Assembly: GCA_964387925.1 (NCBI GenBank)
Contig: CAYLXF010000007.1
Location: 17,270-81,269, forward strand
Direction of reading: 5' to 3'
DNA length: 64,000 nt
From: an uncultured Phycisphaeraceae bacterium
GTDB lineage: Bacteria > Planctomycetota > Phycisphaerae > Phycisphaerales > UBA1924
A program made the position numbers and the translations under genes. Below, piece by piece: positions 3,900 through 62,050 of this stretch (its first letter is position 1; each line of letters begins with the position of its first letter). The notes beneath the pieces are model-generated. The model was given only the letters and a program-made list of their open reading frames with translations, was not told where the DNA came from and searched no databases.

Positions 3900-4382
3900 G
3901 CCCCAAGTATAGAACCGAACGAGGCGACCGGTGCTCCGATGCGAACGCCATGCGCTCCGGGAAAACAAGACCGGCGCCGTGGAAGAAGGAACTCAACCCG
4001 GATCCCCCGCCCGCTGCGATGGCGAGCATCTTCGCCTCGGACGCCCTTGCAGATCAGTCCCCCAGGACCGCTCGAAACTGCCCAGAGGGTTCCACTGCCT
4101 GAACTACCAGGAGCCGCTCTGCACCGAAACGGCGAGTACGGGCGCCCCGCTCCCCTTTCCGACCTCGCCCCTCTTCCCCGTGTCCTCTGTATTCCGTCTC
4201 CCCTTCGGGCCTTGGCGATCTTGCCCCCTAACCCGGAAGCCCACTCAAACTACTGTCAACAAACCGCCTATGATCGGGCTCACCGCCCCCATCGTCGGGG
4301 GTGATGACGGAGCCGAGGGCCGCGCGGAGCGTGGCCCGGTTCGGCGAGCGCCCTGCACGGGGCACACACGACAAGGACCAAT

Positions 4383-6507: not shown

Positions 6508-6783
6508 GATGGGATCCTTTCACGCGCGCGGCGTGACGGAGGTGATCGGGATGTCTTCTCGCCCGTGTGCGCGGGCTCTCTTCCAGCGGCGGACCGCGAC
6601 CTACGCCCCGCAATTCCCGGCGTGCACCGGGATCGACGCGGCGCGGGTGATACGATCTCCCGTGTCGATGAGTATGGCAGACATACCCTCCGAGGTCAAT
6701 GGCGCGTCCCCGCTCTTTTGACGCGCAAGATCGAGCCCACAAAGCACTTGCAATTCAATCTCATCCCTGCTAAGGCGAACCGC

Positions 6784-11134: not shown

Positions 11135-11172
11135 AACCGACCGAGACGCCCAAGAGCAGAGAGCGACGACCG

Positions 11173-12360
11173 ATGGAACGACACCGCCAGACCAGACCAC
11201 ACGGGATCACCGCCCAGCCGATCGACGCCGCGGTCGACGAGGCGCCCGGCGACGAGCCGCGCGTCCGCGTCCTGGCCGTCACGCCCCGCGCCTCGGTGCG
11301 ACGGCGCCTCTCCTCCATGCTCCACGGGCAGGCCGAATCGCTGGTCTTCGCCGACGACGGGCCGGCCGCGATCGAGCGGGTCTCCACGGGCGCCTGCGAT
11401 CTGGTCATCATCGAACGCGCACTGCCGGGCGCCGACGGCATCGACCTGCTTGGCCGCTTGTGCGCCAACCACCCCGCCCTGGTGGGGGTCATCGTGGGCC
11501 GGGTCGAGACCACCGAGGACGCCGTCCGGGCCATGCGCGCCGGGGCGTGCGATGTGATCTCGATCCAGTCCCGCAGCGCCCAGACGGCCAGCCGCCTGCT
11601 CGAGACCGTCAGGCGCGCCCAGCGCATCCGCCAGAGCGACGCGCGGGCCGACCGGCTCAAGAAGCTCTGCAGCAGGCTCAACCACGCGCGACAGGAGGTC
11701 AGCGGGCAGGTGGGCGGCCTGTGCAACGACCTGGTCGAGGCCTACAGGGACCTCTCCGAGCAGCTGGGCGAGGTCCGCCTCGCCACCGAGCTCGGGACGA
11801 TCATGCGCCAGGAGCTGGACATCGAGTCGCTGCTGCGCACCATGCTCGAGTTCACCCTGGGCAAGGTCGGATCGACCAACGCCGCCGTCTTCCTCCCCAC
11901 CAGCGCCGGCGACTACTCGCTGGGCGCGTATGTGAACTACGACATCCCCAGGCAGAGCGCCGAGGTGATGCTCGACCAGCTCGCCGACTCCCTGGCGCCG
12001 CGCTTCGAGGGCGTCACCGAGGTCGTCTCGCTGTGCGGGCGCGCCGACATGGACGAGGCGCTGGGCGGCGACGCCCACTGGCTCGGGGACTCGGCCGCCC
12101 TGGTCGTCTCCTGCGAGCACGAGGACGAGTGCCTCGCGGTGCTGGGCCTGTTCCGCAATCAGAACAACCCCTTCGACGAGGAGGATGCCCGGACCCTCTC
12201 GATCATTGCCCGGATCTTCGGGCAGCAGCTCGGACGCGTGATCCAGGTCCATCACCGACACCTCCCCAAGGACCAGTGGGGGGCCATCGACACCACCGCC
12301 TACGACGACGGGGACGACGACGACTTCTTCTCGGCGGGCGACTACGGCTTGGCGGCCTGA
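11173..12360 (+). CDS. pseudo-receiver + GAF-like domain protein
   Basis: Receiver-like N-terminus lacks the acidic pair (VLAVTPRAS) and has Glu at the acceptor position (DLVIIERALPGADG). A coiled-coil linker follows, then a GAF-like C-terminal half (ELDIESLLRTMLEFTLGKVGSTNAAVFLP…LAVLGLFRNQNNPFDEEDARTLSIIARIFGQQL). Confidence 0.75.
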   Translation: MERHRQTRPHGITAQPIDAAVDEAPGDEPRVRVLAVTPRASVRRRLSSMLHGQAESLVFADDGPAAIERVSTGACDLVIIERALPGADGIDLLGRLCANHPALVGVIVGRVETTEDAVRAMRAGACDVISIQSRSAQTASRLLETVRRAQRIRQSDARADRLKKLCSRLNHARQEVSGQVGGLCNDLVEAYRDLSEQLGEVRLATELGTIMRQELDIESLLRTMLEFTLGKVGSTNAAVFLPTSAGDYSLGAYVNYDIPRQSAEVMLDQLADSLAPRFEGVTEVVSLCGRADMDEALGGDAHWLGDSAALVVSCEHEDECLAVLGLFRNQNNPFDEEDARTLSIIARIFGQQLGRVIQVHHRHLPKDQWGAIDTTAYDDGDDDDFFSAGDYGLAA

Positions 12361-49714: not shown

Positions 49715-51133
49715 ATGCGCACGCTCGTCACCATCGGCCTGACCGCTGTCGCGGTTCTGATCGCACCCGTATTCGCCGCCGACACCGATCGCCAGGCGAT
49801 CGTCGAAAAACACCTTCAGCCCGAGATCGATGCGATGCTCATCCCCGGCGCGGTGGTGGGGATCGACTACGACGGGACCACCACCTTCCATGTCGTGGGG
49901 ACGCTCAACTTCGATACCGACGCCAAGCCCACCGCCGACACGATGTACGAGATCGGCTCGATCTCCAAGGTGATCACGGGGACGCTCCTGGCCGATGCCA
50001 TCCGGCGCGGCGAGGTGACAAAGGACACGCCGCTCAACGATCTGCTCCCCGAGGGGGTGGAGGCGGGCCGCGGCGACAACGGCGAGCCCATCCTCCTCTG
50101 GCACCTGACCACGCACACCTCCGGCTGGGGCACGGCCCCGATCAACCTGCTCCCGACCGATCCGGATCGGCCCTTTGTCGATTACGACCTCGACAAGATG
50201 CTGACCGGGATCGCCAGGACCCCCGTGATGCACACGCCGGGCACGCACTTCGAATATTCCAACTTCGCCGTGGGCGTGCTGGGGACCATGATCGCCCGGC
50301 ACGCCGGCGGTGACTACGAGACGCTGGTCAAGGAGCGGGTGCTTTCGCCTCTGGGCATCGGCGACTTCACGATCACCCTCGACGAAGGACAGCAGAAGCG
50401 TCTCGCCCCCGCGACCCGCGCGGGGATGGACACGAAGCCGTGGGGCTCGATGGGCGCCATCGCCCCGGCGGGCATGTGGACGACGACGGCCCATGGGCTG
50501 ATGGCCTTCGCCGAGGCGAATCTCAAGCCGCTCAATGATAAAGTGGATGATGACCGGGCGGGGATCTATAACGCCATGGAGATGGCTCGCCAGCCGCTCT
50601 ATACCGTCCAGGAGATGGGCCAGCAGGTCGGCATGGGCTGGTTCATCGCCCGCGACGGCGCGAGCCGCTGGCACAACGGGATGACCGGCGGCTACTCGTC
50701 CTACCTGGGCATCAATCGCGATCTGGGCATCGCCGTCGTCGTGCTCACCAACGGGGCGAGTTTGTACACCACCGGCGCGGGCGAGAAGATTTTTCAGGAG
50801 GTCATCGGCATGCACCCCGAGCCGATCTCGCCGCCGATCCCCCGGAAGCTCGTCGACGAAGTAACCACGAAGCTGGTCGGGACCTACCACTCCCAGCTGG
50901 GCTTCGACATCGACATCACCACATCTCACGGCCTCCTCTTCGCCCGCCTCTCCCGCCAGCCCGCCAACCGCGTCCACCCGGTCGAGGAGGCCAAACCGGG
51001 AGAGAAGCGGTTCCGCTACGACGGGATCGACGCCGAGCTGGGCTTCGCGCTGGGCGAGGATAGCGAGAAGGCGTCGGCGGTGACGCTGTATCAGGACTCG
51101 ATGGTGATGCGGTGCGAGCGGGTGGGGGAGTGA
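49715..51133 (+). CDS. secreted serine hydrolase, beta-lactamase (class C / PBP4*-like) family
   Basis: Inner ATG with a signal peptide (MRTLVTIGLTAVAVLIAPVFA). SxxK motif (YEIGSISKVITGTL), YSN (FEYSNFAVGVLG), and a later …GYSSYLGINRD…VVVLTN block. The track start at 49649 would lie inside the palindrome. Confidence 0.85.
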   Translation: MRTLVTIGLTAVAVLIAPVFAADTDRQAIVEKHLQPEIDAMLIPGAVVGIDYDGTTTFHVVGTLNFDTDAKPTADTMYEIGSISKVITGTLLADAIRRGEVTKDTPLNDLLPEGVEAGRGDNGEPILLWHLTTHTSGWGTAPINLLPTDPDRPFVDYDLDKMLTGIARTPVMHTPGTHFEYSNFAVGVLGTMIARHAGGDYETLVKERVLSPLGIGDFTITLDEGQQKRLAPATRAGMDTKPWGSMGAIAPAGMWTTTAHGLMAFAEANLKPLNDKVDDDRAGIYNAMEMARQPLYTVQEMGQQVGMGWFIARDGASRWHNGMTGGYSSYLGINRDLGIAVVVLTNGASLYTTGAGEKIFQEVIGMHPEPISPPIPRKLVDEVTTKLVGTYHSQLGFDIDITTSHGLLFARLSRQPANRVHPVEEAKPGEKRFRYDGIDAELGFALGEDSEKASAVTLYQDSMVMRCERVGE

Positions 51134-51167
51134 GGAACCCGTAGGTATAGCATGCGAATGAACTTCT

Positions 51168-51704
51168 ATGCGAGTGGGGCTCAAGGTCAACTGGTTCGAT
51201 CTAGTCGCTCTACTCGGGGTAGTGGTGACCGTCGTACTGATTTTTACATCATCGCTTGGTTTCCCGCCGTTGCGTTTTTCTCCGGTGAGGTTGCGCCAGG
51301 GAAATTTGCGTTCGATTGCGGCGATGATGAAAAACTATGCCATAGAGCATGATGATCAGTTTATTGTGCCGTCTTCATTCCAGATGGTGATGGACTGGGC
51401 GGATATCCCATACCCAGAGCCCATACTCGGCTCCGATGACACGCAGGACGACATCTGGATGTGCCCCATCCCTTGGCCCGACCGCCGCATCCCCGACGGC
51501 ATCAGGCCCGAAGAGCTCGCCAAGCTCCCGATGCTTCACGAACGCGTCGATATGAATCCCGAAGGCGCCTCGGTGCTTTTCTGGGACGGCCATGTCGAAC
51601 TGCTCTCAAACAAGGATTTCGAGCGGCTGATCGATGTTGATCAGTCGGTCTGCCTTGGGTGCCAGTTGCTGATCCCGAAGTCCATGAAGAACCGGAAACC
51701 ATAA
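51168..51704 (+). CDS. small DUF1559-like (H-x-DG tail) pseudopilin-related protein lacking a canonical prepilin leader
   Basis: N-terminal hydrophobic helix (WFDLVALLGVVVTVVLIF). GNLRSIAAMMKNYAIEHDDQF resembles the NLKQIGLALHNY block of DUF1559 proteins. The C-terminal ASVLFWDGHVELLS resembles their 'N-V-L-F-x-DGSV' tail. Lies in an AT-richer patch (25 G/C in 51301-51360 by my count). Confidence 0.55.
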   Translation: MRVGLKVNWFDLVALLGVVVTVVLIFTSSLGFPPLRFSPVRLRQGNLRSIAAMMKNYAIEHDDQFIVPSSFQMVMDWADIPYPEPILGSDDTQDDIWMCPIPWPDRRIPDGIRPEELAKLPMLHERVDMNPEGASVLFWDGHVELLSNKDFERLIDVDQSVCLGCQLLIPKSMKNRKP

Positions 51705-51710
51705 CTTGCG

Positions 51711-51802
51711 GGGTGCCACTACTCGCCGTCTTCGGCGCAGTAGTGCTCTTGGGGGGCTCTCGAAGACGCTACTGCGCGTCTGCGTCGCGAGTAGTGGCGC
51801 CC
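51711..51802. repeat. REPIN-like palindromic element, copy 2 (left unit conserved, right unit degenerate)
   Basis: 51717-51745 CACTAC-t-CGCCG-tctt-CGGCG-ca-GTAGTG is the same hairpin as in copy 1, with paired substitutions (G>T with C>A) that keep the stem. The right unit, 51769-51796 CTACTGCGCGTCTGCGTCGCGAGTAGTG, keeps the outer stem and GTGGCGCCC flank but has a rearranged core. Confidence 0.7.
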
Positions 51803-51839
51803 AGAGTTCTTCCCTGATGGCCAGCGGCCGATCCCTTCT

Positions 51840-53339
51840 TCACTCCCCCAGCGTCTTCTTCCGCCGCAGAATATGGTGATAGTGCTGCGCGAAGCGGTGC
51901 GCCTCGTCGCGCACCTGCTGGAGCAGGCGCAGACCCGGGTTGTTTCGTCCGAGCCGGATGGGGTCGGGCGAGCCCTGTTTGTAGATCAGTTCTTCCTTCT
52001 TGGCCAGCGACACCACCATCGGCGGCTGGATGTCGAGCTGCTCGAAGGCGTCCATCGCCGCGTGGAGCTGGCCCAGGCCGCCGTCGATCATGATGATGTC
52101 GGGGTACAGCTCGTGCCCCTCGCCCGCGTTGCGATACCGGCGGCTGATGACCTCGCGCATCGACTGGAAATCATCGTTGGCGCGACCGCCGGACAGGTTC
52201 GTGAACGACTTGATGCGGTAGCGCCGGTACTCCTGCTTGAACGGGCGCCCGTCGATGAAGCACACCTTGGACGCGACCGTCTCGTTGCCCTGCAGGTGGG
52301 CGATGTCGAAGCCCTCGACGCAGCGGATGGTTTTTTCCAGCCCCAGCGCCTTCTGCAGACTGGTGCAGCCCTTCTTGGGGTCGATGTACCCGATCTCGGT
52401 CTCGGGCTGCCACTTGTCGCTGGTGCGGGCCCGCTCGTCGAGCTTGCGGATCGCGGTGATCTGGTCGCGCAGGACGGCCGCCGACTCGAACCTCATCTGG
52501 GCGGAGGCATTGACCATCTCCTCTTCCAGCTCGCTGATGACCGTCGAGCGCTTGGTGTTGAAGAAGCGGACTAGGCGCTTGATGTCCTCGCGGTACTGGC
52601 CCTTGCTGATGGAGTTGTTGCACGGCGCGCTGCATTTGCCGATCGCCTTGAGCAGGCACGGGCGGAAGAAGCGGTTTTTGGGGTCGTCCTCGAGGATGTC
52701 CAGCGAGCAGGTGCGGAACTTGAAGACATCCTGGAGCGCGTCGAGCGCGATGCGAAGGGCCGCGGGGGAGGTGAAAGGGCCCAGGATCGTCGCCCCGGTG
52801 AAGCGCGGGTCCTTGGAGCCGTCGGCCCTGATCCCCGTCGGGTTGCGGCTGACGAACACGCGGGGGAAGTCCTCGCGCATGGTGACGATCAGATACGGGT
52901 AGGTGCGGTCGTCCTTCTGCGCGACATTGTACGGCGGGTTGATGTCCTTGATCAGCCGGTTCTCGGCCAGCAGGGCCTCCCACGCCGTGTCGGTGATGAA
53001 GGTGTCGAACGCGTGCACCTCGTCGAGCATCATGTTCTTGCGCGGCCCCAGGTCCGCCGAGGGGATGAAGTACGACGACACCCGGTCGCACAACCGCGTC
53101 GCCTTGCCGACATACAGGACGCTGCCCTTGTGGTTCTTCATGAGATACACGCCGGGCCGCGGCGGCAGCTTGCGCGCGTCGGCGCGCAGGCGCAGCAGAC
53201 GGATCACCCTGGTCTCGGTCCCCCAGGGCGGCGGGTCGGAAGCGGGAGCGTGACCCTCGGCGTCACAGAATGAAGTGTCGGGATCGTCGGCCACGGGGGA
53301 TTGTATTCGTACCGCGGCGTCGGCCGGTTGTGGTGTCAT
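51840..53339 (-). CDS. uvrC: excinuclease ABC subunit C, lacking the C-terminal (HhH)2 domain
   Basis: GIY-YIG (PGVYLMKNHKGSVLYVGKATRLCDRVSSYF), UVR domain (MRFESAAVLRDQITAIRKL), Endo-V-like domain (IEGFDIAHLQGNETVAS…IDGGLGQL…RDEAHRFA). The protein ends ~15 aa after RDEAHRFA. Confidence 0.9.
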   Translation of the reverse strand: MTPQPADAAVRIQSPVADDPDTSFCDAEGHAPASDPPPWGTETRVIRLLRLRADARKLPPRPGVYLMKNHKGSVLYVGKATRLCDRVSSYFIPSADLGPRKNMMLDEVHAFDTFITDTAWEALLAENRLIKDINPPYNVAQKDDRTYPYLIVTMREDFPRVFVSRNPTGIRADGSKDPRFTGATILGPFTSPAALRIALDALQDVFKFRTCSLDILEDDPKNRFFRPCLLKAIGKCSAPCNNSISKGQYREDIKRLVRFFNTKRSTVISELEEEMVNASAQMRFESAAVLRDQITAIRKLDERARTSDKWQPETEIGYIDPKKGCTSLQKALGLEKTIRCVEGFDIAHLQGNETVASKVCFIDGRPFKQEYRRYRIKSFTNLSGGRANDDFQSMREVISRRYRNAGEGHELYPDIIMIDGGLGQLHAAMDAFEQLDIQPPMVVSLAKKEELIYKQGSPDPIRLGRNNPGLRLLQQVRDEAHRFAQHYHHILRRKKTLGE

Positions 53340-53406
53340 TGCCTCAATCAGATTGATAAGGTCCGAACATCATACAGCATCGCGATTGAATCGAGGAGAA
53401 AGCCGC

Positions 53407-53619
53407 TCACCGCTGATCGATCCCGAATCCCTCGCTCACCTCTGGCGGGAGTGGAGCGTCGAACTCGTCACTGATGCGCGCAAGGCCCTTCCAGGCTCCA
53501 CCCTGGCGAGGCTCCCGCGGCTCGATCCGGGGCGCCGGGGCGGGCTTGATGCCCAGTATGCCAAGAAAAACCGACCACTTGCGAGGCCGGCTTGCGTGTT
53601 CGTTCGGTAGATCGGGCAT
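53407..53619 (-). CDS. possible small ORF with antitoxin-like (DUF2281-type) C-terminal motif
   Basis: 70 aa. The C-terminal GAWKGLARISDEFDAPLPPEV resembles the G-S-A-K-G-x-I-x-M-x-DDFDxPLxDF tail I recall from DUF2281/VapB-like antitoxins. The N-terminal half is low complexity. The start is 4 nt after the lipoprotein stop. Weak call. Confidence 0.3.
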   Translation of the reverse strand: MPDLPNEHASRPRKWSVFLGILGIKPAPAPRIEPREPRQGGAWKGLARISDEFDAPLPPEVSEGFGIDQR

Positions 53620-53622
53620 GCC

Positions 53623-54060
53623 TTACTCGTAGATGTAGTCCGGCCCGCGCCACTGCTGCCACTTCTTGAGACGGAAGCGCCAGAAGTTCTCCTCGAAGTT
53701 CTTCTGGGCCTCGGGCGACCAGTTCTGGAAGGCCGGGAGCATCCGGGCCTCGGAGGCCACGCGACGCAGCAGGTCCTCGGCTTCCTGCACGGTCAGCGGC
53801 TCGGCCTCGCCCGAGCGAATCGACGCATGCAGCAGGTCCTGGTACATCGCGTTGAGATGGGCGTAGTCCTCGAGGGTGGTCTCGGTCATGGGCTCCTGGT
53901 TGAGCCGCATCGCCTCGGCGCGGAGGATGGTGTCGACCGCACGCGCCTGGTGGCGCTGCCCGGTGGTCCGCTCGACGCGGCAGCCGGTGGAGACCGTCAG
54001 CAGTGCGATCCCCACGAGGAGGGCTGCTGATTTCACGATTGCTTTGCCTGTGCGATTCAT
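53623..54060 (-). CDS. lipoprotein of unknown function
   Basis: Inner ATG (MNRTGKAIVKSAALLVGIALLTVSTGC) gives a lipobox LTVSTG|C. A helical body follows (…LEDYAHLNAMYQDLLHASIRSGEAEPLTVQEAEDLLRRV…). Confidence 0.6.
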   Translation of the reverse strand: MNRTGKAIVKSAALLVGIALLTVSTGCRVERTTGQRHQARAVDTILRAEAMRLNQEPMTETTLEDYAHLNAMYQDLLHASIRSGEAEPLTVQEAEDLLRRVASEARMLPAFQNWSPEAQKNFEENFWRFRLKKWQQWRGPDYIYE

Positions 54061-54152
54061 ACTCTCTCCATCGGTTCTCGGACCGCGACCCGTGAACAAT
54101 ATACCCACCATCAGGGAGGAAGGTTCACGACTTCATCGGCCCGAATCGTCCC

Positions 54153-55385
54153 TTACGATAGCGCCAGTCGGCACATCATCTCCATCCCGATCCCGATCGC
54201 CCCGTCATTGAAGTCGAAGCCCGGGGTGTGCAGCCCCGGGTAGGGTCTGGCGTCGGACTCGCTCAGCCCCAGCAGAAAGAAGCAGCTGGGGACCCTGAGG
54301 GCATAGTAGGCGAAGTCCTCTCCGCCCATCGTGGGTTCTTTCATCGTCACGAACTCATTCGTAAGTTCAGCTTTCTGAGCAACTTGCGCCACGCGTCGGG
54401 CCTCGGCTGGGTCGTTGTATGTGACGGGGTAGCCGTCGTGCCAGTCGATGTGGGCGGCGGAGCCCAGCGCCCGGCACCCCCGCTCGACCAGCTCGAAGAA
54501 CCGGGCCTTGGTCTTGGTCCGGGTGTCCATGTCCAGCGTCCGGATCGTGCCGCGTAGCGCGCAGGTCTGGGGGATGACATTGTACGCGCTCCCCGCGTGG
54601 ACCGAGGCGAAGGTGACCACCACCGAGTCGGTGGGGCGGGTCGTGCGCGACGCGATCGTCTGGGCCATCGAGATGATCTGGGCCGCCGCGACCACGGGAT
54701 CGACGCACAGGTGGGGGTAGGCGGCGTGCCCCTGCTTGCCCTCGATGACGATGTCGAAGGTGTCGGTCGCCGCCAGCAGCGGGCCGGGGCGGGTGGCGAT
54801 CGTGCCCAGGAGCAGGTCGGGCCAGCCGTGGAGGCCGTACATGCGCGCGACGGGAGGCCCGAACCCATTGGATTCATCCCCGTCCAGCGCCCCGTCGCGG
54901 CACATCTTGTCCCCGCCCCCGCCGCCCTCCTCGGCGGGCTGGAACACCAGCGTCACGGGGTTGGGACGGTGCTCAAGCTGCGACAGCACCCGCGCGACCC
55001 CCAGCAGGATCGCCGTGTGCCCGTCGTGCCCGCAGGCGTGCATCTGGCCGGGTCTGGTTGATTTGTATTTCAGCTCGCCTGCTTCCTCGATGGGCAGCGC
55101 GTCCATGTCGGCCCGCAGCCCGATGCAGTCGCCGGGGCGATCGACCGTCGCGGGGATGTGCGCGAGCACGCCGAAGCCCGTCCCCGGCTCGCGTCCGCCC
55201 ATGTTCGTGCGGAAGGTGACGCCCAGGCGAGTGAGTTCGTCCTGCACGACCTTGGAAGTGCGCTCCTCGGTGAACAGGATCTCGGGGTGGGCGTGCAGAT
55301 CATGGCGGATCGCGGTGATCTCGTCCAGATGGGGCGTGATGAGCGAGGCGAGATCGGGCGTCGCGGTGGTCGTGGTGAAGGGCAT
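54153..55385 (-). CDS. M20-family amidohydrolase (N-acyl-L-amino-acid amidohydrolase / hippurate hydrolase-like)
   Basis: IRHDLHAHPEILFTEERTS, GQMHACGHDGHTAILLG, FQPAEEGGGG, GGEDFAYY. Confidence 0.9.
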   Translation of the reverse strand: MPFTTTTATPDLASLITPHLDEITAIRHDLHAHPEILFTEERTSKVVQDELTRLGVTFRTNMGGREPGTGFGVLAHIPATVDRPGDCIGLRADMDALPIEEAGELKYKSTRPGQMHACGHDGHTAILLGVARVLSQLEHRPNPVTLVFQPAEEGGGGGDKMCRDGALDGDESNGFGPPVARMYGLHGWPDLLLGTIATRPGPLLAATDTFDIVIEGKQGHAAYPHLCVDPVVAAAQIISMAQTIASRTTRPTDSVVVTFASVHAGSAYNVIPQTCALRGTIRTLDMDTRTKTKARFFELVERGCRALGSAAHIDWHDGYPVTYNDPAEARRVAQVAQKAELTNEFVTMKEPTMGGEDFAYYALRVPSCFFLLGLSESDARPYPGLHTPGFDFNDGAIGIGMEMMCRLALS

Positions 55386-55568
55386 GGGAGAGTTTAGACG
55401 AAAGTCAAGTGAGGAGAGCTAATGCATTTTCACGGTTCCTTCAATATAGACAAAAATTAAAAAATCGGAGGAATCGAGTTGCGTCACGGGGGGGGGAGTA
55501 GTCTGGGTTAGATCCCGGGGAACGGTATCGGCGCGTGGTACGATGAACACTCGCTAAAGGAGAAAATA

Positions 55569-56630
55569 ATGAACACGGTAATGAGTTGGGTACGGGGACA
55601 CCTTGAATATTCGAATCCTATTTTCGGGCTCCTCTTGATCCTGAATCTGATGGTCTTCCCGGTTTATCGTGCCAGCGCGGCCCTGGCCCAGCCCGTGCAA
55701 CCGATGGCAGAGACCGCGGAGCAGATTTCAGATGCGCTTGATGCGGTAGAGGTGGGCGCGACCATAGAGCAGGCCTTCGGGGTGCAGCCGGTTCCTATAC
55801 GAGATTGGGGTGCGGATCAAAAATATTTTTATGAAGCATTGTTTAATGTGCCTTACGATCAAAACGATGCTGTGTATATCCTCCTCACTGAGATTTCAGA
55901 GACAGACGAATTCCAGTCTGTCTCGCTGGAGACGCCTGATGGAAACCCGTTTTCATTGCAAATTCATCTGATTTCTGAATACGATTACACGAATGACGAT
56001 CAGTTGTCAAGCCAAGACGCAAACGAGCTCGCCGCTGTAAATGCCAGTATCTTTAGTTTCATTGGTACGGCCGCCAGCCAGTTTGATAGCTTGAACATCA
56101 ACGGGCTCGTGATTCAAGCTGCCCGGGCGGATGGAGGTCGAAATAGATTTATTCTCATCGGCGGGTATGTCGATGGAGAAGTAGTTAATAGTTTAATTTT
56201 AACTCATCTATATGTTGATATCGCAGGAATCTCGCCTGTCGGAGAGATACAAAACTGCGAAGATGCATTTAATCAGGCGCTAAGCACCTATTCTGGATCG
56301 CTTTCCGATGCAAGGTCTAATCTGAAATCCTGCCAAGATACCGCGGCAGCGTCAGCGATTCACAGCCTTGCGGATTGTTTGCGGCTGGCTGGCGGGAGCG
56401 GTGTGGCGGCGGGGATTGCTGCGAGCAGCGGACCCGTGGGAGCGATCGCAGCTCTGATTGTATTTTCAGTGTGTGGAATTGCGGCGGCTGCGGACATGGC
56501 GACGGATTTGTGGCAGTGCTCGAACGCGTATAAAGCCGCAGTAGCTGCCGCTCAGAATGCGTTTGCAGCGGCGAAAGCCGCCGCTAGAGCCACCTTCGGC
56601 GTTGAGAACTGCCCCGGCGATCCGGTGTGA
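55569..56630 (+). CDS. exported protein of unknown family with Cys-rich C-terminal region and Gly/Ala-zipper hydrophobic segment (low-GC cassette gene 1)
   Basis: AAAGGAG lies 7 nt before the ATG. Signal peptide …LMVFPVYRASAALAQP. Codons end mostly in A/T. C-terminus: …NCEDAF…KSCQD…[86 protein letters not shown]. Confidence 0.7.
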   Translation: MNTVMSWVRGHLEYSNPIFGLLLILNLMVFPVYRASAALAQPVQPMAETAEQISDALDAVEVGATIEQAFGVQPVPIRDWGADQKYFYEALFNVPYDQNDAVYILLTEISETDEFQSVSLETPDGNPFSLQIHLISEYDYTNDDQLSSQDANELAAVNASIFSFIGTAASQFDSLNINGLVIQAARADGGRNRFILIGGYVDGEVVNSLILTHLYVDIAGISPVGEIQNCEDAFNQALSTYSGSLSDARSNLKSCQDTAAASAIHSLADCLRLAGGSGVAAGIAASSGPVGAIAALIVFSVCGIAAAADMATDLWQCSNAYKAAVAAAQNAFAAAKAAARATFGVENCPGDPV

Positions 56631-56669
56631 TGATTGCCGGGCGGAGTTATCTGTAAAAAATGAGTAAAT

Positions 56670-57245
56670 ATGTTTAACATGGACAATTACATGATTTGGA
56701 ATACCCTATTCGCAGCCATGTTTTTGCCATTGTTTTTTATACTGCTGAGGCATCGGATTATGACTTATCCGCATATATCCTCTCGGGCCGGTCCAAGTCA
56801 TTTCGCGTTCGTCGAACCTATAAGGCTGAGGTCCGGATTCGGGTGGGATGCGGGTCGGATCGCTTGCTTGACAGTAATCCTGTTTTCCGCCGCATTGTTC
56901 GCTTATGACCACCGGCGGTTTAGTGCTGAATCCTTCTTGGGTTTTCAAGCAAACAGCATCGTAAAGGATTCTATCACTTTGTCCTTTTTTTATCTTCCGT
57001 TCTATGCTCTGGGCTGGGAGCCATGGAAACTCGGAGCCATACTGGCTGACACTGAAAAAATTTCTGTACCTTGTGCTATGAGGGTAAAGCGATTTGATCG
57101 TGGTTCCACGAGGGTCTGGATTAGACCAGTCAGCAAGAACATACACCAATGCGTGCTTTCCCAAGGTCGAGCTACAGCCATGTTCTGTCTGAACGATGAA
57201 TCAGCGGTGTTTCTCCGCCTTTGGGCGTCGCATGAAACAGGTTAG
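56670..57245 (+). CDS. small polytopic membrane protein of unknown family (low-GC cassette gene 2)
   Basis: 191 aa with predicted TM helices (IWNTLFAAMFLPLFFILL; IACLTVILFSAALFAY; ITLSFFYLPFYALGW) and a ~70-aa soluble tail. There is no clear Shine-Dalgarno, so the start is uncertain (ATGs at codons 1, 4 and 8). Confidence 0.5.
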   Translation: MFNMDNYMIWNTLFAAMFLPLFFILLRHRIMTYPHISSRAGPSHFAFVEPIRLRSGFGWDAGRIACLTVILFSAALFAYDHRRFSAESFLGFQANSIVKDSITLSFFYLPFYALGWEPWKLGAILADTEKISVPCAMRVKRFDRGSTRVWIRPVSKNIHQCVLSQGRATAMFCLNDESAVFLRLWASHETG

Positions 57246-57269
57246 CGGCGTGGCGCCCGTATGCGTGAT

Positions 57270-58304
57270 TCACGCCGCGGCGGTGTAGCGCAGCTGGGCC
57301 TGATCCTCGATGAACCGGCGCGCCACCTGCTCGAGGTCCATGAGCTTGAGGCTCGTGTGATCATCGTGCTGGTTGTGGGCGCGGATCGCGTTGAACTCCG
57401 CCTCATTAGCGAAGAACGCGTCGGCGACGCTCGGGTCGAAGTGCGTCCCGCGCAGGTCGCGGATCAGCTCGGCCGTCTGCTCGTGGGTCATGGCGTCTTT
57501 GTAGATACGCCTGCTGGTGACGGCGTCGTAGAAATCCGCCAGCGCCACGATCCGCGCCGGCAGCGAGATGTCCTCGCCGCCGAGCCCGAACGGATACCCG
57601 GTGCCGTCCCACTTCTCGTGGTGCTGGAGGGCGATCTCCACGCCCATGTCGATGAACCCGTCGCCGCCGAGCTTGGCGCGGATCGCCAGCAGGGTGTCGG
57701 CGCCGATGAGCGTGTGCTTCTCCATCACCTCGCGCTCCTCGCGGGTCAGACGCGCGGGCTTGAGCAGGATCGAGTCAGGGATCCCCACCTTGCCGATGTC
57801 GTGCAGCGACGAGGCGAGCACGAGGCGGTCGATCCACTTGGCGTCGATGATGTCGGGATAGCGCGTGCGCAACGCGTCCGCGACGATTCGCGCGTACAGC
57901 CCGATCCGCTCCAGGTGGGCCCCCGTGTCCGTGTCGCGGTAGTCGGCCAGCTTGGCCAGCCCGAAGATCAGGGCGTTGCGCTTGGCCAGCCCCGCCGTCA
58001 CCTGGCGCGCCACCTCGGCGCTGAGCTCGCGGTTGGCCTGCTCGAGCGTGTCGCGGTATCGCTTGGAGGCCAGGAACATGATCAGGGCCGTGAGCGTGAA
58101 CACGCTGAAGGCGATGGACACGCGGAACACGAACAGCCGGTCGGCGGCCGACATCGAGAGGCTGAACTCACGCCGCACCCAGGCGTCCACGGCGAACTCA
58201 CCGGCCATCAGGACCGCCGCCTGGAAGATCAGTATCCCCAGCAGGAACGATCGCCGGTCCTTGGGCCTGAACTGCCATTCGAGTTTCTTCCTGGCGGTGC
58301 TCAC
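57270..58304 (-). CDS. membrane-anchored HD-GYP domain protein (putative c-di-GMP phosphodiesterase)
   Basis: Two N-terminal TM helices, then HDIGKVGIPDSILLKPARLT…HHEKWDGTGYPFGL…ARIVALADFYDAVTSRRIYK. Confidence 0.9.
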   Translation of the reverse strand: MSTARKKLEWQFRPKDRRSFLLGILIFQAAVLMAGEFAVDAWVRREFSLSMSAADRLFVFRVSIAFSVFTLTALIMFLASKRYRDTLEQANRELSAEVARQVTAGLAKRNALIFGLAKLADYRDTDTGAHLERIGLYARIVADALRTRYPDIIDAKWIDRLVLASSLHDIGKVGIPDSILLKPARLTREEREVMEKHTLIGADTLLAIRAKLGGDGFIDMGVEIALQHHEKWDGTGYPFGLGGEDISLPARIVALADFYDAVTSRRIYKDAMTHEQTAELIRDLRGTHFDPSVADAFFANEAEFNAIRAHNQHDDHTSLKLMDLEQVARRFIEDQAQLRYTAAA

Positions 58305-58416
58305 GGGGCCTGCATCGGGCCGACGGGTTCCGGCCTTGCCCCGGCGCCGGATCGAAACCCGGGACCGCGGCGGAGACCGGGAGGGATGCGCCGATCAGGG
58401 CAGCCGGCCATGCTGT

Positions 58417-59478
58417 TTACGGACCCTCAAGCACACGCTCGCACGCGTCCATCGCCGCGGGGGCCAGATCGGCGGCCCCCCGATAATCAGGCAGACGGCC
58501 GATGTCCAGCACCCGGTCGGCGAACTCGGCGCGCAGCGCCGGATCGACCGGCGTGTTGTGCGTGGTCGATTCCCAGAGCAGGCGCTCGACCGTCGGCGAG
58601 ACGAGATAGGCCGCCAGGCGTCGTGCGGCGTCGGGGTGGGGCGCGTTCCTGGCCACCGCCACCGTGTTGGGGATCAGCGTGGGCCCCGCGCCGGGCCAGC
58701 GCGGGTCGCCCTCCGCGCTCTCGTAGGCCAGATCAACTTTCCACCCGTTCTCCCGCCCGGCCCAGATGTCGTCGGTGTCGGTCAGCCCCACATCGATCTC
58801 GCCCATCGACAGCGCCCGCACCACCGTCGCGTTCCCGTCGTACAGACGAACGCCGTTGTCGCGCAGCGCCTCCAGCCAGGACTCGAAGCCCTCCAGGCCC
58901 CAGCGCTGGGCCAGAATCGCCATGTGGATGCGCGTGGTGCCGAACTGCGGGCGCGCCATGCCGATGCGACCCTGGTACGTCGGGTCCGCCAGCGCCGCCA
59001 GGGCCGTCGGCGGCTGGCCGACGCGGTCGCTGGCGAAGCCGATCACCCGCGCCCGCACCGCGATCCCCACCCACGACCAGTCATCCGCCCGCAGCTGCTC
59101 GGGCCAGTCCTCGCCCACCGTTCCCTCCATCGCCCCCGCTTCCAGCACGCCCTCGGCGTCGAGCCGGATCGTCCCCATCGGCTCGCTGGACCACCACACA
59201 TCGGCCGTCGGATCGCCCTTCTCCGCCAGCAGACGCGCCACCAGCCCGGTGGTCTTGGTCGCCTCGGTGTCGCCCAGCACCCGGACCTCGATCCCGGTTT
59301 CCTTTTCAAACGCGTCCACCACCATGCGCGCGAAGATGTCGTCCACGCTGGTGTAGAGCGTGACGGTCCGCGTGCTCGTGGGCGTCGCGTCGGACCCGGT
59401 GCTGTTTGATTCGGAGCATGAGACGAGCGTGAGGCCCAGAAGCACGATGGGCAACGAAAAGGCATGTGTGAATCGCAT
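58417..59478 (-). CDS. ABC-transporter periplasmic solute-binding lipoprotein (family 1; iron(III)/thiamine-type)
   Basis: Lipobox LGLTLVSC. VTLYTSVDDIFARMVVDAFEKETGIEVRVLGDTEATKTTGLVARLLAE…DVWWSSEP is typical of FbpA/AfuA-like binding proteins. No permease or ATPase gene is adjacent. Confidence 0.85.
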   Translation of the reverse strand: MRFTHAFSLPIVLLGLTLVSCSESNSTGSDATPTSTRTVTLYTSVDDIFARMVVDAFEKETGIEVRVLGDTEATKTTGLVARLLAEKGDPTADVWWSSEPMGTIRLDAEGVLEAGAMEGTVGEDWPEQLRADDWSWVGIAVRARVIGFASDRVGQPPTALAALADPTYQGRIGMARPQFGTTRIHMAILAQRWGLEGFESWLEALRDNGVRLYDGNATVVRALSMGEIDVGLTDTDDIWAGRENGWKVDLAYESAEGDPRWPGAGPTLIPNTVAVARNAPHPDAARRLAAYLVSPTVERLLWESTTHNTPVDPALRAEFADRVLDIGRLPDYRGAADLAPAAMDACERVLEGP

Positions 59479-59561
59479 GGCTCATGGTACCGGCCACGGG
59501 CATGAAAGTCGGGAGCGGAAGTCGGCCACCGGCGCCATGCCCCCGCAGCGCCGCCTCACCC

Positions 59562-59639
59562 GGCGATCTTCATCGCCTCCGCCCCGCACTCCGGGCACAC
59601 CCGCTGCTGCTCGATCGCGTACCCGCACCAGGGGCACAA
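59562..59639 (-). CDS. possible 25-aa zinc-ribbon mini-ORF, or read-through extension of the upstream gene
   Basis: Same frame as 59646-60173, directly after its TGA: …RRATRS*RRLCPWCGYAIEQQRVCPECGAEAMKIAG*. The only candidate start is TTG (L). CxxC-x11-CxxC is a zinc-ribbon pattern. Not in the ORF track (too short). Confidence 0.25.
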
Positions 59640-59645
59640 CCGCCG

Positions 59646-60173
59646 TCAAGATCGAGTGGCCCGGCGAGCCATGATCAACGCCAAGGGGAGGAGAAAGAGC
59701 AAGAACCAGACCGGCGTCACGACCAGCAATGGGTTGACCACCAGGCCCAGCGGCATCAGCGTCGGGCGCGGGTCCGGTTCCGGGCCCTGCAGCGCCGGGT
59801 CGTCCCAGTTCCACCACATCTGCTTGATCTCAATGACCGGAAACGGCCAACCGAGGTGCTGGACCTCCATCGAGAACCCATTCATGTTCTCGGTCGGATT
59901 GGGAACCCTTGCGTCGTACTCGCGGTAGCCGAATGACGACCATGCGGTGATCGAGGTCGGCCCTGTCCACGGTCGGTCATGCGGGGTCTTCGCCGGCCAG
60001 CCGCGCGCGCCCGCCTCCGCCCCGCGGAAATAGAGCGATTGACCCGGTCGCTTCCCCGTGCGCGACCGGATTCTCGTGATCGCGAACGGCACATTGATCG
60101 ACGCCGCGATCAGCACCAGCACGACCAGCGAGCCCACCAGCCAACGCAGCTCGGATGCCTTGATGAATCTCAT
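59646..60173 (-). CDS. bitopic membrane protein of unknown function
   Basis: C-terminal 175 aa of track ORF 59646-60743, starting at MRFIKASELRWLVGSLVVLVLIAASI. It has N- and C-terminal TM helices flanking a Trp-rich domain (…HLGWPFPVIEIKQMWWNWDDPALQG…). The upstream part of the track ORF is a shadow frame inside the next gene. Confidence 0.6.
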   Translation of the reverse strand: MRFIKASELRWLVGSLVVLVLIAASINVPFAITRIRSRTGKRPGQSLYFRGAEAGARGWPAKTPHDRPWTGPTSITAWSSFGYREYDARVPNPTENMNGFSMEVQHLGWPFPVIEIKQMWWNWDDPALQGPEPDPRPTLMPLGLVVNPLLVVTPVWFLLFLLPLALIMARRATRS

Positions 60174-60244
60174 GACCGAGTGTAACAGATACACCGGGGG
60201 GCGCGAGGAAGCCGGCGGTGGTCCGGTCGGCCACCCGGGGTGGC

Positions 60245-62050
60245 TTATTCGCCGCTCTTGTTCTCGCCAGATTTCGCGTCGCTGCCCTGGGGCGCCGGCT
60301 CGGGCTTCTCGCCGCTGGCCTTCTTCGCCTCGTTGTCGAGGCGCCCGAAGTAGTGCTGCACCGCCGCCTCGTGCTTGCGGGGGACGCGCTTGGTCTCGAT
60401 CGCCTCGGCCGCCTGGGTCGTGGCGCTCTCGACGGCGCTGGTGAAGGTGGCCGTCGATTCGCCCTTGATCTGCGATCCCTGCACCATCGTCGAGGCGATC
60501 ACCGGGCCGTCGTTGGTGGTCTGGACCTCGGCCCGCTCCTTCTTGAGCATGAAGTCGGCGGCCTGCGCGTCGGGGCTCTGTCCCATGCCCTTGCCGGAAC
60601 CGCCGGACCCGCTGCCGAAGCCCTGGCTGTCGCCCCGGGAATACTTCCCCGTCCCGCCCCACTTGGCGTCCTCGCCGAAGCCCTGACCGCCACCGCCGCC
60701 GGGGTTGCTGCACTGGCCCAGCTTGCCCAGCTGGCCGCTGCACTCGCCCATCGCCTGCTCCAGCGCGTTCATCTCCTGCTGCATCCGCTCCATGCTGCTC
60801 AGCTGGCCGGACATCGATTCGAGCCCCTCCCCCATCTCGCCCGGGTTGGACTGCTGCATGCCCGAGGCCATCTGCCCCATCGCCTGGGCCATCGAACCGG
60901 CGGCGTCCGACGCACGCTGCTGCGCCTGGGCCGCCTGAGACAGCTGCTGGGCCTGCTCCTCGCTGACGCCGGCCTCTTGAAGCGCCTTCTTGAGCGCCCC
61001 GGGATCGGTCGCCAGCTGCTGGGCCTGCTGCTCGCTCAGGCCCGCGGCCTTGAGCTGCTCCTCGAGCGACTGGCGGTTCTCGGCCATCTTCTCGAGCGCC
61101 TGCTTCATCTGCTCAAGCTGCTCGGCGGCCTGCTGCTTCTGCTCCTCGCTCATCGACCCGTCCTGCGCCGCCTGGGCCATCTGCTCAAGCTGCTTCCGCG
61201 CCTCCTTGAAGTCGCCGCGGGCCATCGCCCGCGCCATCTCGGACATCGGGCCCTCCTTGGGCGTGTTGAGCTGGCGGGTCATGTCACGGATCGCGTCGAA
61301 GGTCGCCCCGTCCTCGTTGTTCCGCTGGTCTTCGAGCTTGTCCGACAGACTGGTCAGCTCCTTGATCGCGCTGCGCGCGATCTCCTGGGGATCGACGAAC
61401 TCGGTCTTCTCGGGGGTCAGCTCGGGGGCGGTCTCGTCGCCCGCGGCTTGAAGGTCGACCCCGGTCCTGGATTTGATCTCCTCGATCATGGCCCTGGTCT
61501 CGTTGACCGTCGCCTTGACCTCCTCGACCTGCGCCTGGTTGGCCCGCTTCAGCTCCTTGCGGGCCAGCAGCCCCGTCACATCCGTCGCTGGGACCCACCA
61601 GACGGCCAACAGCGCCAGGGCCGCGGCCACCGGCATCGGCCAGGCGCGGGGCGTCTCGATGGGCAGCGAGTCGTTGATCACCACCCGCCGGGCCTTGGTC
61701 GAAGCGTCGTCGACGACCGCGCGGGACCACGGGTCCTGGTTCTCGTCGACGCACAGGGCCGTCGAGATGGATTCGCGCAGGTGCGCGCGCTCGTCGATCG
61801 TCCGCGCGACCTGGCCCTCGTCGGGCTTGCGCACCAGCGACGCGATCAGGGCGATGACGACCGTCGCCGCCGCGCCGGCGAGAAAAGCGAGCCCCCAGTC
61901 GAGCGTGAGGGTGGGCACGAACTTCTGAGCGATCCGTATGAGCAGCAGCACGCACAGCACAATGAACGCGCTGACCATGAGCGTGCGCAGCAGGTCGATG
62001 ACGAACAGACGCTTGGCGGCCCGCGCGAGCACATGCTTGATCTCGGTCAT
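60245..62050 (-). CDS. membrane-anchored Gln/Glu/Ala-rich coiled-coil protein
   Basis: Three N-terminal TM helices, then a long coiled coil with repeated …GLSEQQAQQL… / …GVSEEQAQQL… units. A Gly/Ser-rich stretch follows, then a C-terminal block (…ETKRVPRKHEAAVQHYFGRL…). No family assigned with confidence. Confidence 0.7.
   Translation of the reverse strand: MTEIKHVLARAAKRLFVIDLLRTLMVSAFIVLCVLLLIRIAQKFVPTLTLDWGLAFLAGAAATVVIALIASLVRKPDEGQVARTIDERAHLRESISTALCVDENQDPWSRAVVDDASTKARRVVINDSLPIETPRAWPMPVAAALALLAVWWVPATDVTGLLARKELKRANQAQVEEVKATVNETRAMIEEIKSRTGVDLQAAGDETAPELTPEKTEFVDPQEIARSAIKELTSLSDKLEDQRNNEDGATFDAIRDMTRQLNTPKEGPMSEMARAMARGDFKEARKQLEQMAQAAQDGSMSEEQKQQAAEQLEQMKQALEKMAENRQSLEEQLKAAGLSEQQAQQLATDPGALKKALQEAGVSEEQAQQLSQAAQAQQRASDAAGSMAQAMGQMASGMQQSNPGEMGEGLESMSGQLSSMERMQQEMNALEQAMGECSGQLGKLGQCSNPGGGGGQGFGEDAKWGGTGKYSRGDSQGFGSGSGGSGKGMGQSPDAQAADFMLKKERAEVQTTNDGPVIASTMVQGSQIKGESTATFTSAVESATTQAAEAIETKRVPRKHEAAVQHYFGRLDNEAKKASGEKPEPAPQGSDAKSGENKSGE

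Follow-up and report, generated by a model that had tools for sequence, protein, structure and literature searches.

A lineage-restricted, AT-rich two-gene cassette, of a family with divergent alleles, inserted at an HD-GYP/M20 gene junction in a Phycisphaerales-type planctomycete

Background

Between an HD-GYP gene and an M20 gene of an uncultured planctomycete lies a short AT-rich segment that carries just two genes, in DNA that is otherwise very rich in G and C, and this raises the question of how such a segment came to be there and what its genes do. The DNA analysed, hereafter the window, is a stretch of 64,000 nucleotides (nt) of an uncultured Phycisphaeraceae bacterium (GenBank assembly GCA_964387925.1, contig CAYLXF010000007.1, positions 17,270 to 81,269 of the forward strand). 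An earlier note, made from the sequence without database searches, had described the segment as a compositionally foreign cassette with a toxin/immunity-like layout: an exported, Cys-rich protein with a Gly/Ala zipper (open reading frame 1, ORF1) and a small polytopic membrane protein (ORF2). We find that the segment is a discrete insertion, that its two genes belong to a family of linked gene pairs with very divergent alleles, and that its low G+C content (GC) follows that of its hosts. This structural and evolutionary description, which comprises the insertion, the gene pair, the reality of the genes, the GC offset and the exchange of alleles, is in our opinion well supported. Regarding the function, a polymorphic membrane-inserting toxin with its inner-membrane immunity protein is the reading that fits best, and we hold it tentatively.

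Results and discussion

A discrete insertion in an operon-like junction

Relatives were located by scanning species-representative genomes with the M20 protein, and the host was placed as a Phycisphaerales-type planctomycete. The gene order solute-binding protein (SBP), HD-GYP, M20 and hyp162, all on one strand, is kept in eight relatives, with M20 proteins 63-79% identical. In all eight of them no more than around 20-90 nt separate the HD-GYP stop from the M20 start and the cassette is missing; in most of them the two genes are nearly contiguous, with around 20 nt between them. Alignment of the junctions placed the borders of the insert at approximately 55398 and 57253, the latter 8 nt past the ORF2 stop, and the insert is bracketed by conserved junction words, ACGGGCG on the HD-GYP side and CTAAACTCTC before the M20 ATG. 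Therefore the comparison of the amidohydrolase/HD-GYP junction among relatives, which the earlier note had proposed, revealed a discrete cassette here and an empty junction in the eight relatives: the module was inserted into the operon-like HD-GYP/M20 junction in this lineage. An identical locus was present in seven independent assemblies from one run series. The main features of the locus are the following:

55398..57253, no strand: inserted AT-rich segment of around 1.86 kilobases (kb), lying between the stop of HD-GYP and the start of M20, from the comparison with eight relatives; GC 0.502.
55398..55568, plus strand: non-coding leader of ORF1 within the insert, which the divergent M20 gene now also has upstream of it.
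55488..55496, plus strand: homopolymer run of nine G (G9), 81 nt before the ATG of ORF1.
55556..55562, plus strand: Shine-Dalgarno sequence AAAGGAG, 6 nt before the ORF1 ATG, read from the sequence.
55569..56630, plus strand: ORF1, 353 amino acids (aa), exported protein rich in Cys that founds an unnamed family.
56670..57245, plus strand: ORF2, 191 aa (184 aa if started at Met8, 56691), small membrane protein and partner of ORF1.

The two co-directional genes, 39 nt apart, and the Shine-Dalgarno sequence were thus as the earlier reading had them. The insert is oriented opposite to HD-GYP and M20 and splits the apparent ancestral operon. As a consequence the M20 gene (54153-55385, minus strand) now has 183 nt of cassette DNA (55386-55568) upstream of it, and its transcription must now start within the AT-rich cassette leader, where no promoter-like site was detected.

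Regarding the composition, the collapse between the M20 start and the HD-GYP stop was confirmed by both the sliding-window GC and the GC at third codon positions (GC3), and the two base counts given before were exact (48 G/C in 10021-10080 and 22 in 55801-55860). The segment 55398-57253 (1856 nt) has a GC of 0.502, against a mean of 0.685 (standard deviation 0.028, minimum 0.618) for the other windows of the same size, which places it around 6.5 standard deviations under the mean; the GC of the whole window is around 0.68. In windows of 300 nt the GC falls from 0.65-0.72, the level of the flanks on both sides, to 0.46-0.52 between approximately 55400 and 57250, and the single rise inside the trough, to 0.61, is the Gly/Ala-rich coding stretch. 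The drop lies mainly in the third codon positions, since GC3 is 0.53 in ORF1 and 0.51 in ORF2 versus 0.89-0.94 in the M20, HD-GYP and SBP neighbours.

The borders are unmarked, as had been noted: there is no integrase or transposase ORF, no tRNA and no terminal inverted or direct repeat. At the insert borders only short repeats at chance level were found, and no terminal inverted repeats (TIR) or target-site duplication (TSD); the 8 nt between the ORF2 stop and the insert border hold no attC-like inverted repeat, a tRNA scan of 50000-62000 gave none, and the leader 55398..55568 had no Rfam match. An origin as an insertion sequence or transposon was rejected, given that there is neither a transposase ORF nor a TIR/TSD at the borders defined by comparison, and so was an integron cassette or integrative island, given the lack of an attC-like repeat, an integrase and a tRNA target. 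Furthermore, a scan of the cassette for sigma-70-like promoters and terminators remained at or under the shuffle expectation, with no significant promoter in the leader.

A second and milder low-GC patch is present at 51168-51704 (plus strand; GC 0.55 versus 0.68). Its ORF encodes 178 aa with an N-terminal transmembrane (TM) helix and a C-terminal 'LFWDGHVELLS' motif, and it has no Pfam match.

A family of linked gene pairs

Word-indexed searches gave self-matches only, but the orphan status of ORF1 and ORF2 that followed from them was overturned by an exhaustive HMMER scan of 1.84 billion representatives. We obtained 25 ORF1 relatives at E<=1e-3, 13 of these at E<=1e-30; around 20 are full-length (313-356 aa) and show 30-45% identity, the nearest known relative being 45% identical. 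Therefore the previous statement that no family could be recognised is right in that no characterised family is matched, and wrong if taken to mean that the proteins are orphans. Actually, Pfam, NCBIfam, PADLOC and PHROGs gave nothing significant for ORF1 or ORF2, and Pfam and NCBIfam gave nothing for 19 family members either (E<=0.1-1).

The genomic context could be recovered for 16 distinct ORF1 loci, and in all of them a membrane protein is encoded on the same strand directly downstream of the ORF1 homologue. According to this partner, the loci fall into three groups: i) a clear ORF2 homologue (hidden Markov model, HMM, E 1e-15 to 1e-72) in 11 loci; ii) proteins with 4-5 TM helices that resemble ORF2 only at the level of motifs in its C-terminus, in L093, L094, L103 and L104; and iii) a different 214-aa protein with 6 TM helices, not ORF2-like, in L013. 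Whether the pair co-occurs as neighbours elsewhere had been posed as a check, and it clearly does. The locus L013 belongs to the relative metagenome-assembled genome (MAG) OFTM189, where the region 9802-11606, just downstream of M20-hyp162, holds a distant ORF1-family gene at 10449-11555 (minus strand; HMM E=3e-20).

Two loci, L088 and L092, have two copies of ORF2 without an extra gene 1. In L088 the second copy (9659-10147) overlaps the first by 4 nt and is 38% identical to the ORF2 of the window versus 21% to its own neighbour, as would be expected of an orphan immunity-like gene from another cassette type. The full-length ORF1 relatives can all be aligned over their whole length, the same six Cys included, and no alternative C-termini were found.

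The family is spread over around 10 different chromosomal sites. The few source names present read 'hypothetical protein [Phycisphaerae bacterium]' and many of the samples are marine (Tara); the two-gene module is placeable only in (mostly marine) Phycisphaerae. One MAG has an empty HD-GYP/M20 junction (L079, JAJRPN010000028.1) together with an ORF1/ORF2 cassette at another site, after a NuoG-like gene (L102, JAJRPN010000002.1), which means that relatives own the module but hold it elsewhere.

Old alleles, exchanged and moved

Five loci (L088, L090/95, L097, L098 and L100) share one chromosomal position between a SucD-like CoA ligase and an amidohydrolase, which we call site A. Here the flanking proteins are 70-95% identical, whereas the ORF1 proteins are only 30-45% identical. 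The sliding DNA identity between L088 and L098 is 0.78-0.98 in the flanks and 0.85-0.95 in the upstream region and the first 200 nt or so of ORF1; it then falls abruptly to around 0.45 at about codon 65, stays there through ORF1 and ORF2 and recovers exactly at the amidohydrolase. Gene 1 thus combines a conserved N-terminal part and a variable remainder with a recombination breakpoint inside the gene. In the variable part the synonymous divergence (dS) is saturated, while the flanks at site A show a dS of 0.57-0.87, and consequently the alleles are much older than the divergence of the hosts and must have been swapped in, not evolved in place. The breakpoints of this swapping are the conserved 5' part of gene 1 (around 200 nt) and the downstream flank, as the identity profile indicates.

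The window itself holds at 4308-5918 (plus strand) a 501-aa stretch that is 82% identical to L098:4755-6353, where the gene directly preceding the SucD-like flank of site A is found. This makes the host of L098 a rather near relative of the window organism, although nothing else of site A lies within the window.

The closest pair of cassettes is L098 (site A) and L099, which lies at a second site, site B, common to L096. Their flanks are unrelated, but the ORF1 proteins are 77% and the ORF2 proteins 73% identical. The homology at the DNA level amounts to 80% over 1.7 kb, from 13 nt before the ATG, at AAGGAGATTTCGTATG, to around 80 nt past the ORF2 stop. The word AAGGAGATTTCGTATG, which is the equivalent of the Shine-Dalgarno sequence and the 5' edge of this homology, is conserved in L088, L096, L098, L099 and L102. 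Such similar alleles at unrelated sites indicate, at the sequence level, that the cassette moves between sites.

This same pair allowed us to estimate the selection acting on both genes. The ratio of non-synonymous to synonymous divergence (dN/dS) is 0.28 for ORF1 and 0.32 for ORF2, with 0.05-0.16 for the housekeeping flanks, so both genes are real and under purifying selection. Nevertheless, the tip region of ORF1 has 19 amino-acid-changing codons versus 6 silent ones, against 57:71 in the rest (Fisher p=0.0045), and a dN/dS of 1.85 over 40 codons. Within ORF2 the membrane part has a dN/dS of 0.41-0.49 versus 0.13 for the C-terminal domain, and the fast part is the TM2-TM3 region.

The two proteins

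Structure models were made with AlphaFold2 (AF2). The model of ORF1, built from 19 sequences, has a mean local confidence (pLDDT) of 81.8 and a predicted template-modelling score (pTM) of 0.76. The parts of ORF1 are these:

55569..55679, plus strand: signal-peptide-like N-terminus, aa 1-37, ending in ...VYRASA with A as the next residue; hydrophobic aa 14-32.
55680..55853, plus strand: aa 38-95, where the mature protein is most conserved, with PVQPMAETAEQ; 51% mean pairwise identity.
55716..56216, plus strand: acidic alpha/beta domain, aa 50-216, modelled by AF2 as helices and a six-strand antiparallel sheet, pLDDT mostly 86-97.
56256..56597, plus strand: antiparallel helical hairpin, H230-273 and H301-343, modelled by AF2 as helices of 43-44 residues joined by a Gly/Ala-rich hydrophobic tip.
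56373..56498, plus strand: tip of the hairpin, hydrophobic and rich in Gly/Ala, aa 269-310; its small-xxx-small repeats comprise A274, G278, G282 and S286; from Kyte-Doolittle hydropathy.

The N-terminus is unusually conserved. W7, S15, P17, F19, P31 and A37 are invariant in the alignment of the ORF1 subgroup, and the pairwise identity of the signal-like part and the next 55 residues or so is 46-51% versus 27-33% elsewhere in the family. Cleavage would fall after the AxA motif. The acidic character of the following domain, already noticed before, is evident in aa 39-225, with 28 D+E versus 5 K+R.

The six Cys that had been seen near the C-terminus all lie within the last 124 residues (230, 255, 270, 302, 317 and 348), and each of them is conserved in 13-19 of the 19 sequences. 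The pairs 255/317 and 270/302 are exactly mirror-symmetric about residue 286 or so, and the outer pair 230/348 approximately. Judging from this spacing, three nested disulfides would staple the hairpin, and such staples would imply an oxidising, extracytoplasmic location. At the tip ORF1 has an extended (G/A/S)xxxGxxxG zipper, A274-G278-G282-S286 with further repeats in aa 269-311, and its strongest hydrophobic segment is aa 290-308, with a Kyte-Doolittle score of 2.43.

The fold of ORF1 had no match at E<0.1 in Foldseek searches of the Protein Data Bank (PDB) and BFVD; Bet v 1, DcrB and PsbP-like folds were all at E>0.7. A sequence-profile search of the PDB gave nothing relevant either. Weak PHROG matches to phage tape-measure proteins (E=0.002-0.006) were found for aa 200-326 of the ORF1 of the window and for aa 239-341 of the ORF1 of L088; they are probably compositional, since tape-measure proteins likewise have glycine-zipper-like membrane segments.

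ORF2 had been described as polytopic with 3-4 TM helices. The membrane part holds true, but the protein is not polytopic throughout, as the three or so TM helices give way to a soluble, basic domain of around 75 aa:

56691..57017, plus strand: membrane part with around three TM helices, aa ~8-26, 61-79 and ~98-116, from hydropathy and AF2.
57018..57242, plus strand: basic C-terminal domain, aa 117-191, with the motif GW-P-RLG-(I/V)L-D-EK-VP ... LR-WA, modelled as four strands and a helix.

The AF2 model of ORF2 has an overall pLDDT of 53; its helices (4-32, 61-83 and 93-113) are of low confidence, and aa 140-187 reach around 75. W116, G122, V133, P134 and W185 are invariant in the family alignment. 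The charge of the C-terminal domain (11 K+R versus 7 D+E) suggests a cytoplasmic location. Foldseek gave no significant match for ORF2, the best being a PUR repeat at E=0.076 on a poor model, and a PDB sequence-profile search gave nothing. An identity of the C-terminal domain as bacterial PH (bPH_2) was considered and found to be unsupported by Pfam or Foldseek.

Simple-sequence tracts upstream of gene 1

The G9 tract is the sole G/C run of at least nine in the 64-kb window. Long homopolymer or hexamer tracts, 33-125 nt before the start codon, are found upstream of gene 1 in seven loci including the window, so that a repeat tract of the hypermutable kind is present in the 5' region. The tracts of ORF1 homologues are C16 in L088, A12C22 in L098, G46 (at a contig end) in L092 and G16 (coding strand) in L013. 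L088 and L098 share the upstream region and differ in tract length, and the same occurs in the homologous upstream regions of L096, with (GATGAA)6 and A10 (around 6530-6570), and L102, with (GATGAA)4 and A6 (around 4900-4930). In the approximately 1.3 megabases of loci that we fetched there are 10 distinct G/C runs of at least nine; five are upstream of ORF1-family genes and a sixth precedes another AT-rich pair.

That other pair, on one strand at L013:13099-14958, is preceded by TTGACA-GAT-G12-CATGGTATGTT, with a perfect TTGACA. One of its proteins (337 aa) is secreted and rich in Cys, and the other (208 aa) has a TM helix and, at its C-terminus, a zinc-ribbon-like CxxC...CxxC. This pair suggests that AT-rich cassettes fronted by homopolymers are more widespread in the clade.

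In L013 the G16 of the ORF1-family gene is located inside a sigma-70-like spacer (TTGACC-CGA-G16-TATTGT). The layout of the tracts is that of promoter-spacer phase-variation switches, and phase variation may be taken as a lead here. The length of G9 was the same in the consensus sequences of seven assemblies of the window organism, and a full-text literature search found no paper on phase variation in planctomycetes.

What the pair may do

A toxin and its immunity protein would fit best, in our tentative judgement, because an exported, disulfide-rich protein with a zipper tip is linked to a membrane partner, the alleles are old and swapped, and the hairpin and the TM helices change fast. ORF1 would leave the cytoplasm via Sec, and oxidation in the periplasm would give a helical hairpin held together by three disulfides; the Gly/Ala zipper at the tip of this hairpin would insert into a membrane and oligomerise, producing a leak or pore, and the acidic alpha/beta head would be a targeting or receptor module. 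ORF2, in the inner membrane of the producer, would intercept the cognate hairpin with its variable TM helices and so confer immunity. Many old pairs of alleles could stay in circulation through negative frequency-dependent selection acting between producers and the relatives that are sensitive to them, and the upstream tracts may switch expression on and off. The extra divergent copies of gene 2, the allelic divergence at a conserved site, the movement between sites and the excess of amino-acid changes in the hairpin all fit a toxin/immunity-like or recognition locus.

Several points weigh against it. The Sec signal alone delivers ORF1 only to the periplasm, and no exit route from the producer is linked: none of the 16 loci has a secretion system (type I, T1SS; type II, T2SS; type VI, T6SS; contact-dependent growth inhibition, CDI) or a lysis gene beside it. 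A hydrophobic hairpin after a signal peptide could simply hold ORF1 in the inner membrane of its own cell. Neither in sequence nor in fold is there a likeness to colicins, Cdz, CdiA-CT or any toxin, and the variable parts are divergent versions of a single fold, whereas classical polymorphic toxins have toxin domains unrelated to one another. Furthermore, the disulfide pattern is deduced from the spacing of the Cys, and the excess of amino-acid change in the hairpin, which is suggestive, comes from one sequence pair and 40-50 codons.

The same evolutionary pattern is accounted for nearly as well by a non-toxic, variable envelope complex, a reading we find rather doubtful on the whole but worth weighing. 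ORF1 would be anchored by its hairpin with the acidic head in the periplasm or at the surface, ORF2 would be its membrane partner, and the complex would act as a phage receptor or mask, in phage exclusion or in kin recognition; diversifying selection driven by phages or neighbours, with phase-variable expression, would account for the polymorphism. Variable surface loci of the replacement type would show the same old alleles at one conserved position, the same replacement by recombination and the same AT-richness, and the simple-sequence tracts upstream in seven loci are a hallmark of surface-structure contingency loci. The lack of linked export machinery past Sec is also in line with such a complex, and a signal peptide plus a hydrophobic hairpin is compatible with self-anchoring. 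However, no evidence marks ORF1 as surface-exposed, no PADLOC defence match was obtained and no relatives were found on viral contigs. In addition, the extra copies of gene 2 without an extra gene 1 (L088 and L092) are more typical of immunity genes, and evolution is fastest in the membrane-embedded hairpin and not in the exposed head.

The probability left beyond the toxin/immunity pair and the envelope complex we assign to other or unknown roles. We also considered a contingency-type, phase-variable module for self/non-self discrimination or phage exclusion, not a conventional toxin. Here a disulfide-stapled hairpin protein that dips into the membrane and its cognate membrane partner would persist as ancient trans-specific alleles under frequency-dependent selection, switched by the tracts and AT-rich by selection, for instance for silencing or low expression, and not through foreign origin. 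We judge this unlikely; if true, it would be the first such module described in free-living marine Planctomycetota, and the fold of ORF1 would be a new membrane-active class.

Where the AT-richness comes from

The label 'compositionally foreign', in the sense of an arrival from a low-GC donor, did not survive the comparison. A recent transfer from an unrelated low-GC donor, not yet ameliorated, would account for a GC of 0.50 in DNA of 0.685 and a GC3 of around 0.52 versus 0.9 or so, for the junction that is empty in eight relatives and for the closest known ORF1 being just 45% identical. However, the 14 loci with visible flanks all lie in genomes of high GC (0.55-0.72), none in a low-GC context, and the placeable ones are Phycisphaerae by their names or by homology of the flanks. 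The GC of the cassette is below that of the flanks in every one of these loci (cassette/host: L088 0.44/0.59, L090 0.48/0.62, L091 0.54/0.68, L103 0.43/0.61, L104 0.57/0.71), and it correlates with the flank GC (r=0.90, p=2e-4) at a near-constant offset of 0.140 +/- 0.019. Even the cassette of site A, a long resident of the clade, is still around 0.14 lower, and viral contigs gave no matches. A low-GC donor as the explanation of the composition is thus largely refuted, and we consider it quite improbable.

Since the offset is around 0.14 everywhere and the GC tracks that of the host, the AT-richness is a property of the cassette family and not the sign of an alien source. It could be kept up by selection for weak expression or silencing, by a mutation or recombination bias, or by an unsampled reservoir. 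A sharp GC trough therefore need not signal a foreign donor, as here it is stable, lineage-restricted and host-tracking, and this raises the question of what keeps the genes of the cassette AT-rich: silencing, expression control or a bias of recombination or mutation.

Very improbable, in our view, is a remnant of a prophage or mobile element (a lysis, moron or superinfection-exclusion cassette). The segment is small, AT-rich and without a conserved promoter of its own, and its Gly/Ala segment gave the weak tape-measure matches mentioned above (E=0.002-0.006), but these are compositional and not significant. Moreover, no relative was found among 2.9 million viral contigs (IMG/VR), the fold search of ORF1 in BFVD gave nothing, no phage, integrase or transposase genes are found beside the cassette in the 16 loci, and TIR, TSD and tRNA are lacking.

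Finally, chance reading frames in AT-rich non-coding DNA, which might be suspected because gene callers passed over ORF2 in some assemblies (L001-L003) and neither ORF has a Pfam match, are refuted by the full-length homologues of 30-45% identity with conserved Cys and motifs, by a dN/dS of around 0.3 in both genes and by the confident AF2 model of ORF1.

Comparison with known systems

We know of almost no characterised antagonism, immunity or recognition systems in Planctomycetota, especially in the marine Phycisphaerae. The cassette is compact, two genes in around 1.7 kb, and offers a confident model of ORF1 together with natural alleles, presence/absence and allele swaps, so that competition or recognition is directly testable. 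If ORF1 forms pores, its architecture, an alpha/beta head bearing a helical hairpin that is stapled by disulfides and ends in a glycine-zipper tip, would define a new class of structure.

Among the known systems, the pore-forming colicins (A/E1/Ia) share with ORF1 a hydrophobic, Ala/Gly-rich helical hairpin of around 40 residues, which in the colicin is hidden in its soluble helical domain. They also have a small polytopic inner-membrane immunity protein with 3-4 TM helices encoded beside the toxin, and they act from the periplasmic face of the inner membrane; their pore domains show activity once a signal peptide directs them to the periplasm (PMC11630599). In contrast with colicins, ORF1 has a Sec-type signal (putatively cleavable), six conserved Cys and a stapled hairpin of two helices where the colicin is a bundle of ten. 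It also lacks colicin-type translocation and receptor domains, a lysis gene and an SOS box, and ORF2 has an extra conserved soluble C-terminal domain. No match to Colicin (PF01024) or to a colicin immunity family was found for ORF1, ORF2 or the 19 family members, and a ten-helix globin-like bundle is not seen, the AF2 model of ORF1 being the two-helix hairpin with an alpha/beta head, without a Foldseek PDB match at E<0.1.

In the Cdz system of Caulobacter, CdzC and CdzD have a glycine-zipper segment thought to form pores, and immunity is provided by the small inner-membrane protein CdzI (PMC5380434). The hydrophobic zipper segment, the small membrane partner and the aquatic, free-living hosts of Gram-negative type are common to both. 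However, the Cdz proteins are around 85 aa long, with linked type I export and surface aggregates, whereas ORF1 has 353 aa, a folded head, a Sec-type signal and putative disulfides; a pair of ATP-binding cassette (ABC) and membrane fusion protein (MFP) exporter genes was found beside the cassette in none of the 16 loci.

The ionophores of CDI (the CdiA-CT EC93 family) are polymorphic membrane-inserting helical toxins with a putative glycine zipper, composed of a variable 'entry' part and a membrane part, and their CdiI is even more variable (PMC11630599). CdiA-CT is, however, the tip of a giant CdiA with two-partner secretion and a VENN motif, while ORF1 stands alone without CdiA/CdiB or VENN.

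The cassette resembles polymorphic toxin systems as a class (Zhang et al. 2012, PMC3482391) in its conserved N-terminal export part, variable remainder and linked variable partner, in the sometimes extra, orphan-like copies and in the recombinational replacement of the cassette with a breakpoint within gene 1. For a putative toxin neutralised by its neighbour, the sequences show the linkage in 16 of 16 loci and the co-divergence of both genes between L098 and L099 (ORF1 77%, ORF2 73% identity). Unlike in those systems, the variable parts are homologous, with one fold and conserved Cys, and no Rhs, LXG, PT-HINT or similar trafficking domain is present; unrelated toxin domains swapped onto a common N-terminal scaffold were not found among the full-length relatives.

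Two further classes of loci are similar in their behaviour. In the contingency loci of Neisseria meningitidis, porA has a poly-G and opc a poly-C tract between the -35 and -10 elements. The cassette likewise has tracts upstream that differ in length between homologous regions (C16 versus C22; (GATGAA)6 versus (GATGAA)4). However, the G9 of the window is constant in seven assemblies, the hosts are free-living marine planctomycetes and not host-adapted pathogens, and the promoter is only a candidate. O-antigen and capsule replacement islands occupy the same position in relatives with deeply divergent content and persistently low GC, and are exchanged via flanking homology. The cassette shares the fixed site, the divergent content, the low GC and the flank-mediated exchange, but it has two small genes and no glycosyltransferases, and it occupies around 10 sites, being therefore additive as well as replacing.

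The pair belongs to none of the colicin, Cdz and CDI ionophore families, as defining features of these were looked for and not found. The novelty lies in a family without a name, restricted to one lineage and with a fold that matches no other, and in an unusual combination of features: a persistent GC offset following that of the host, recombinational replacement of alleles in which the breakpoint falls within gene 1, and simple-sequence tracts upstream.

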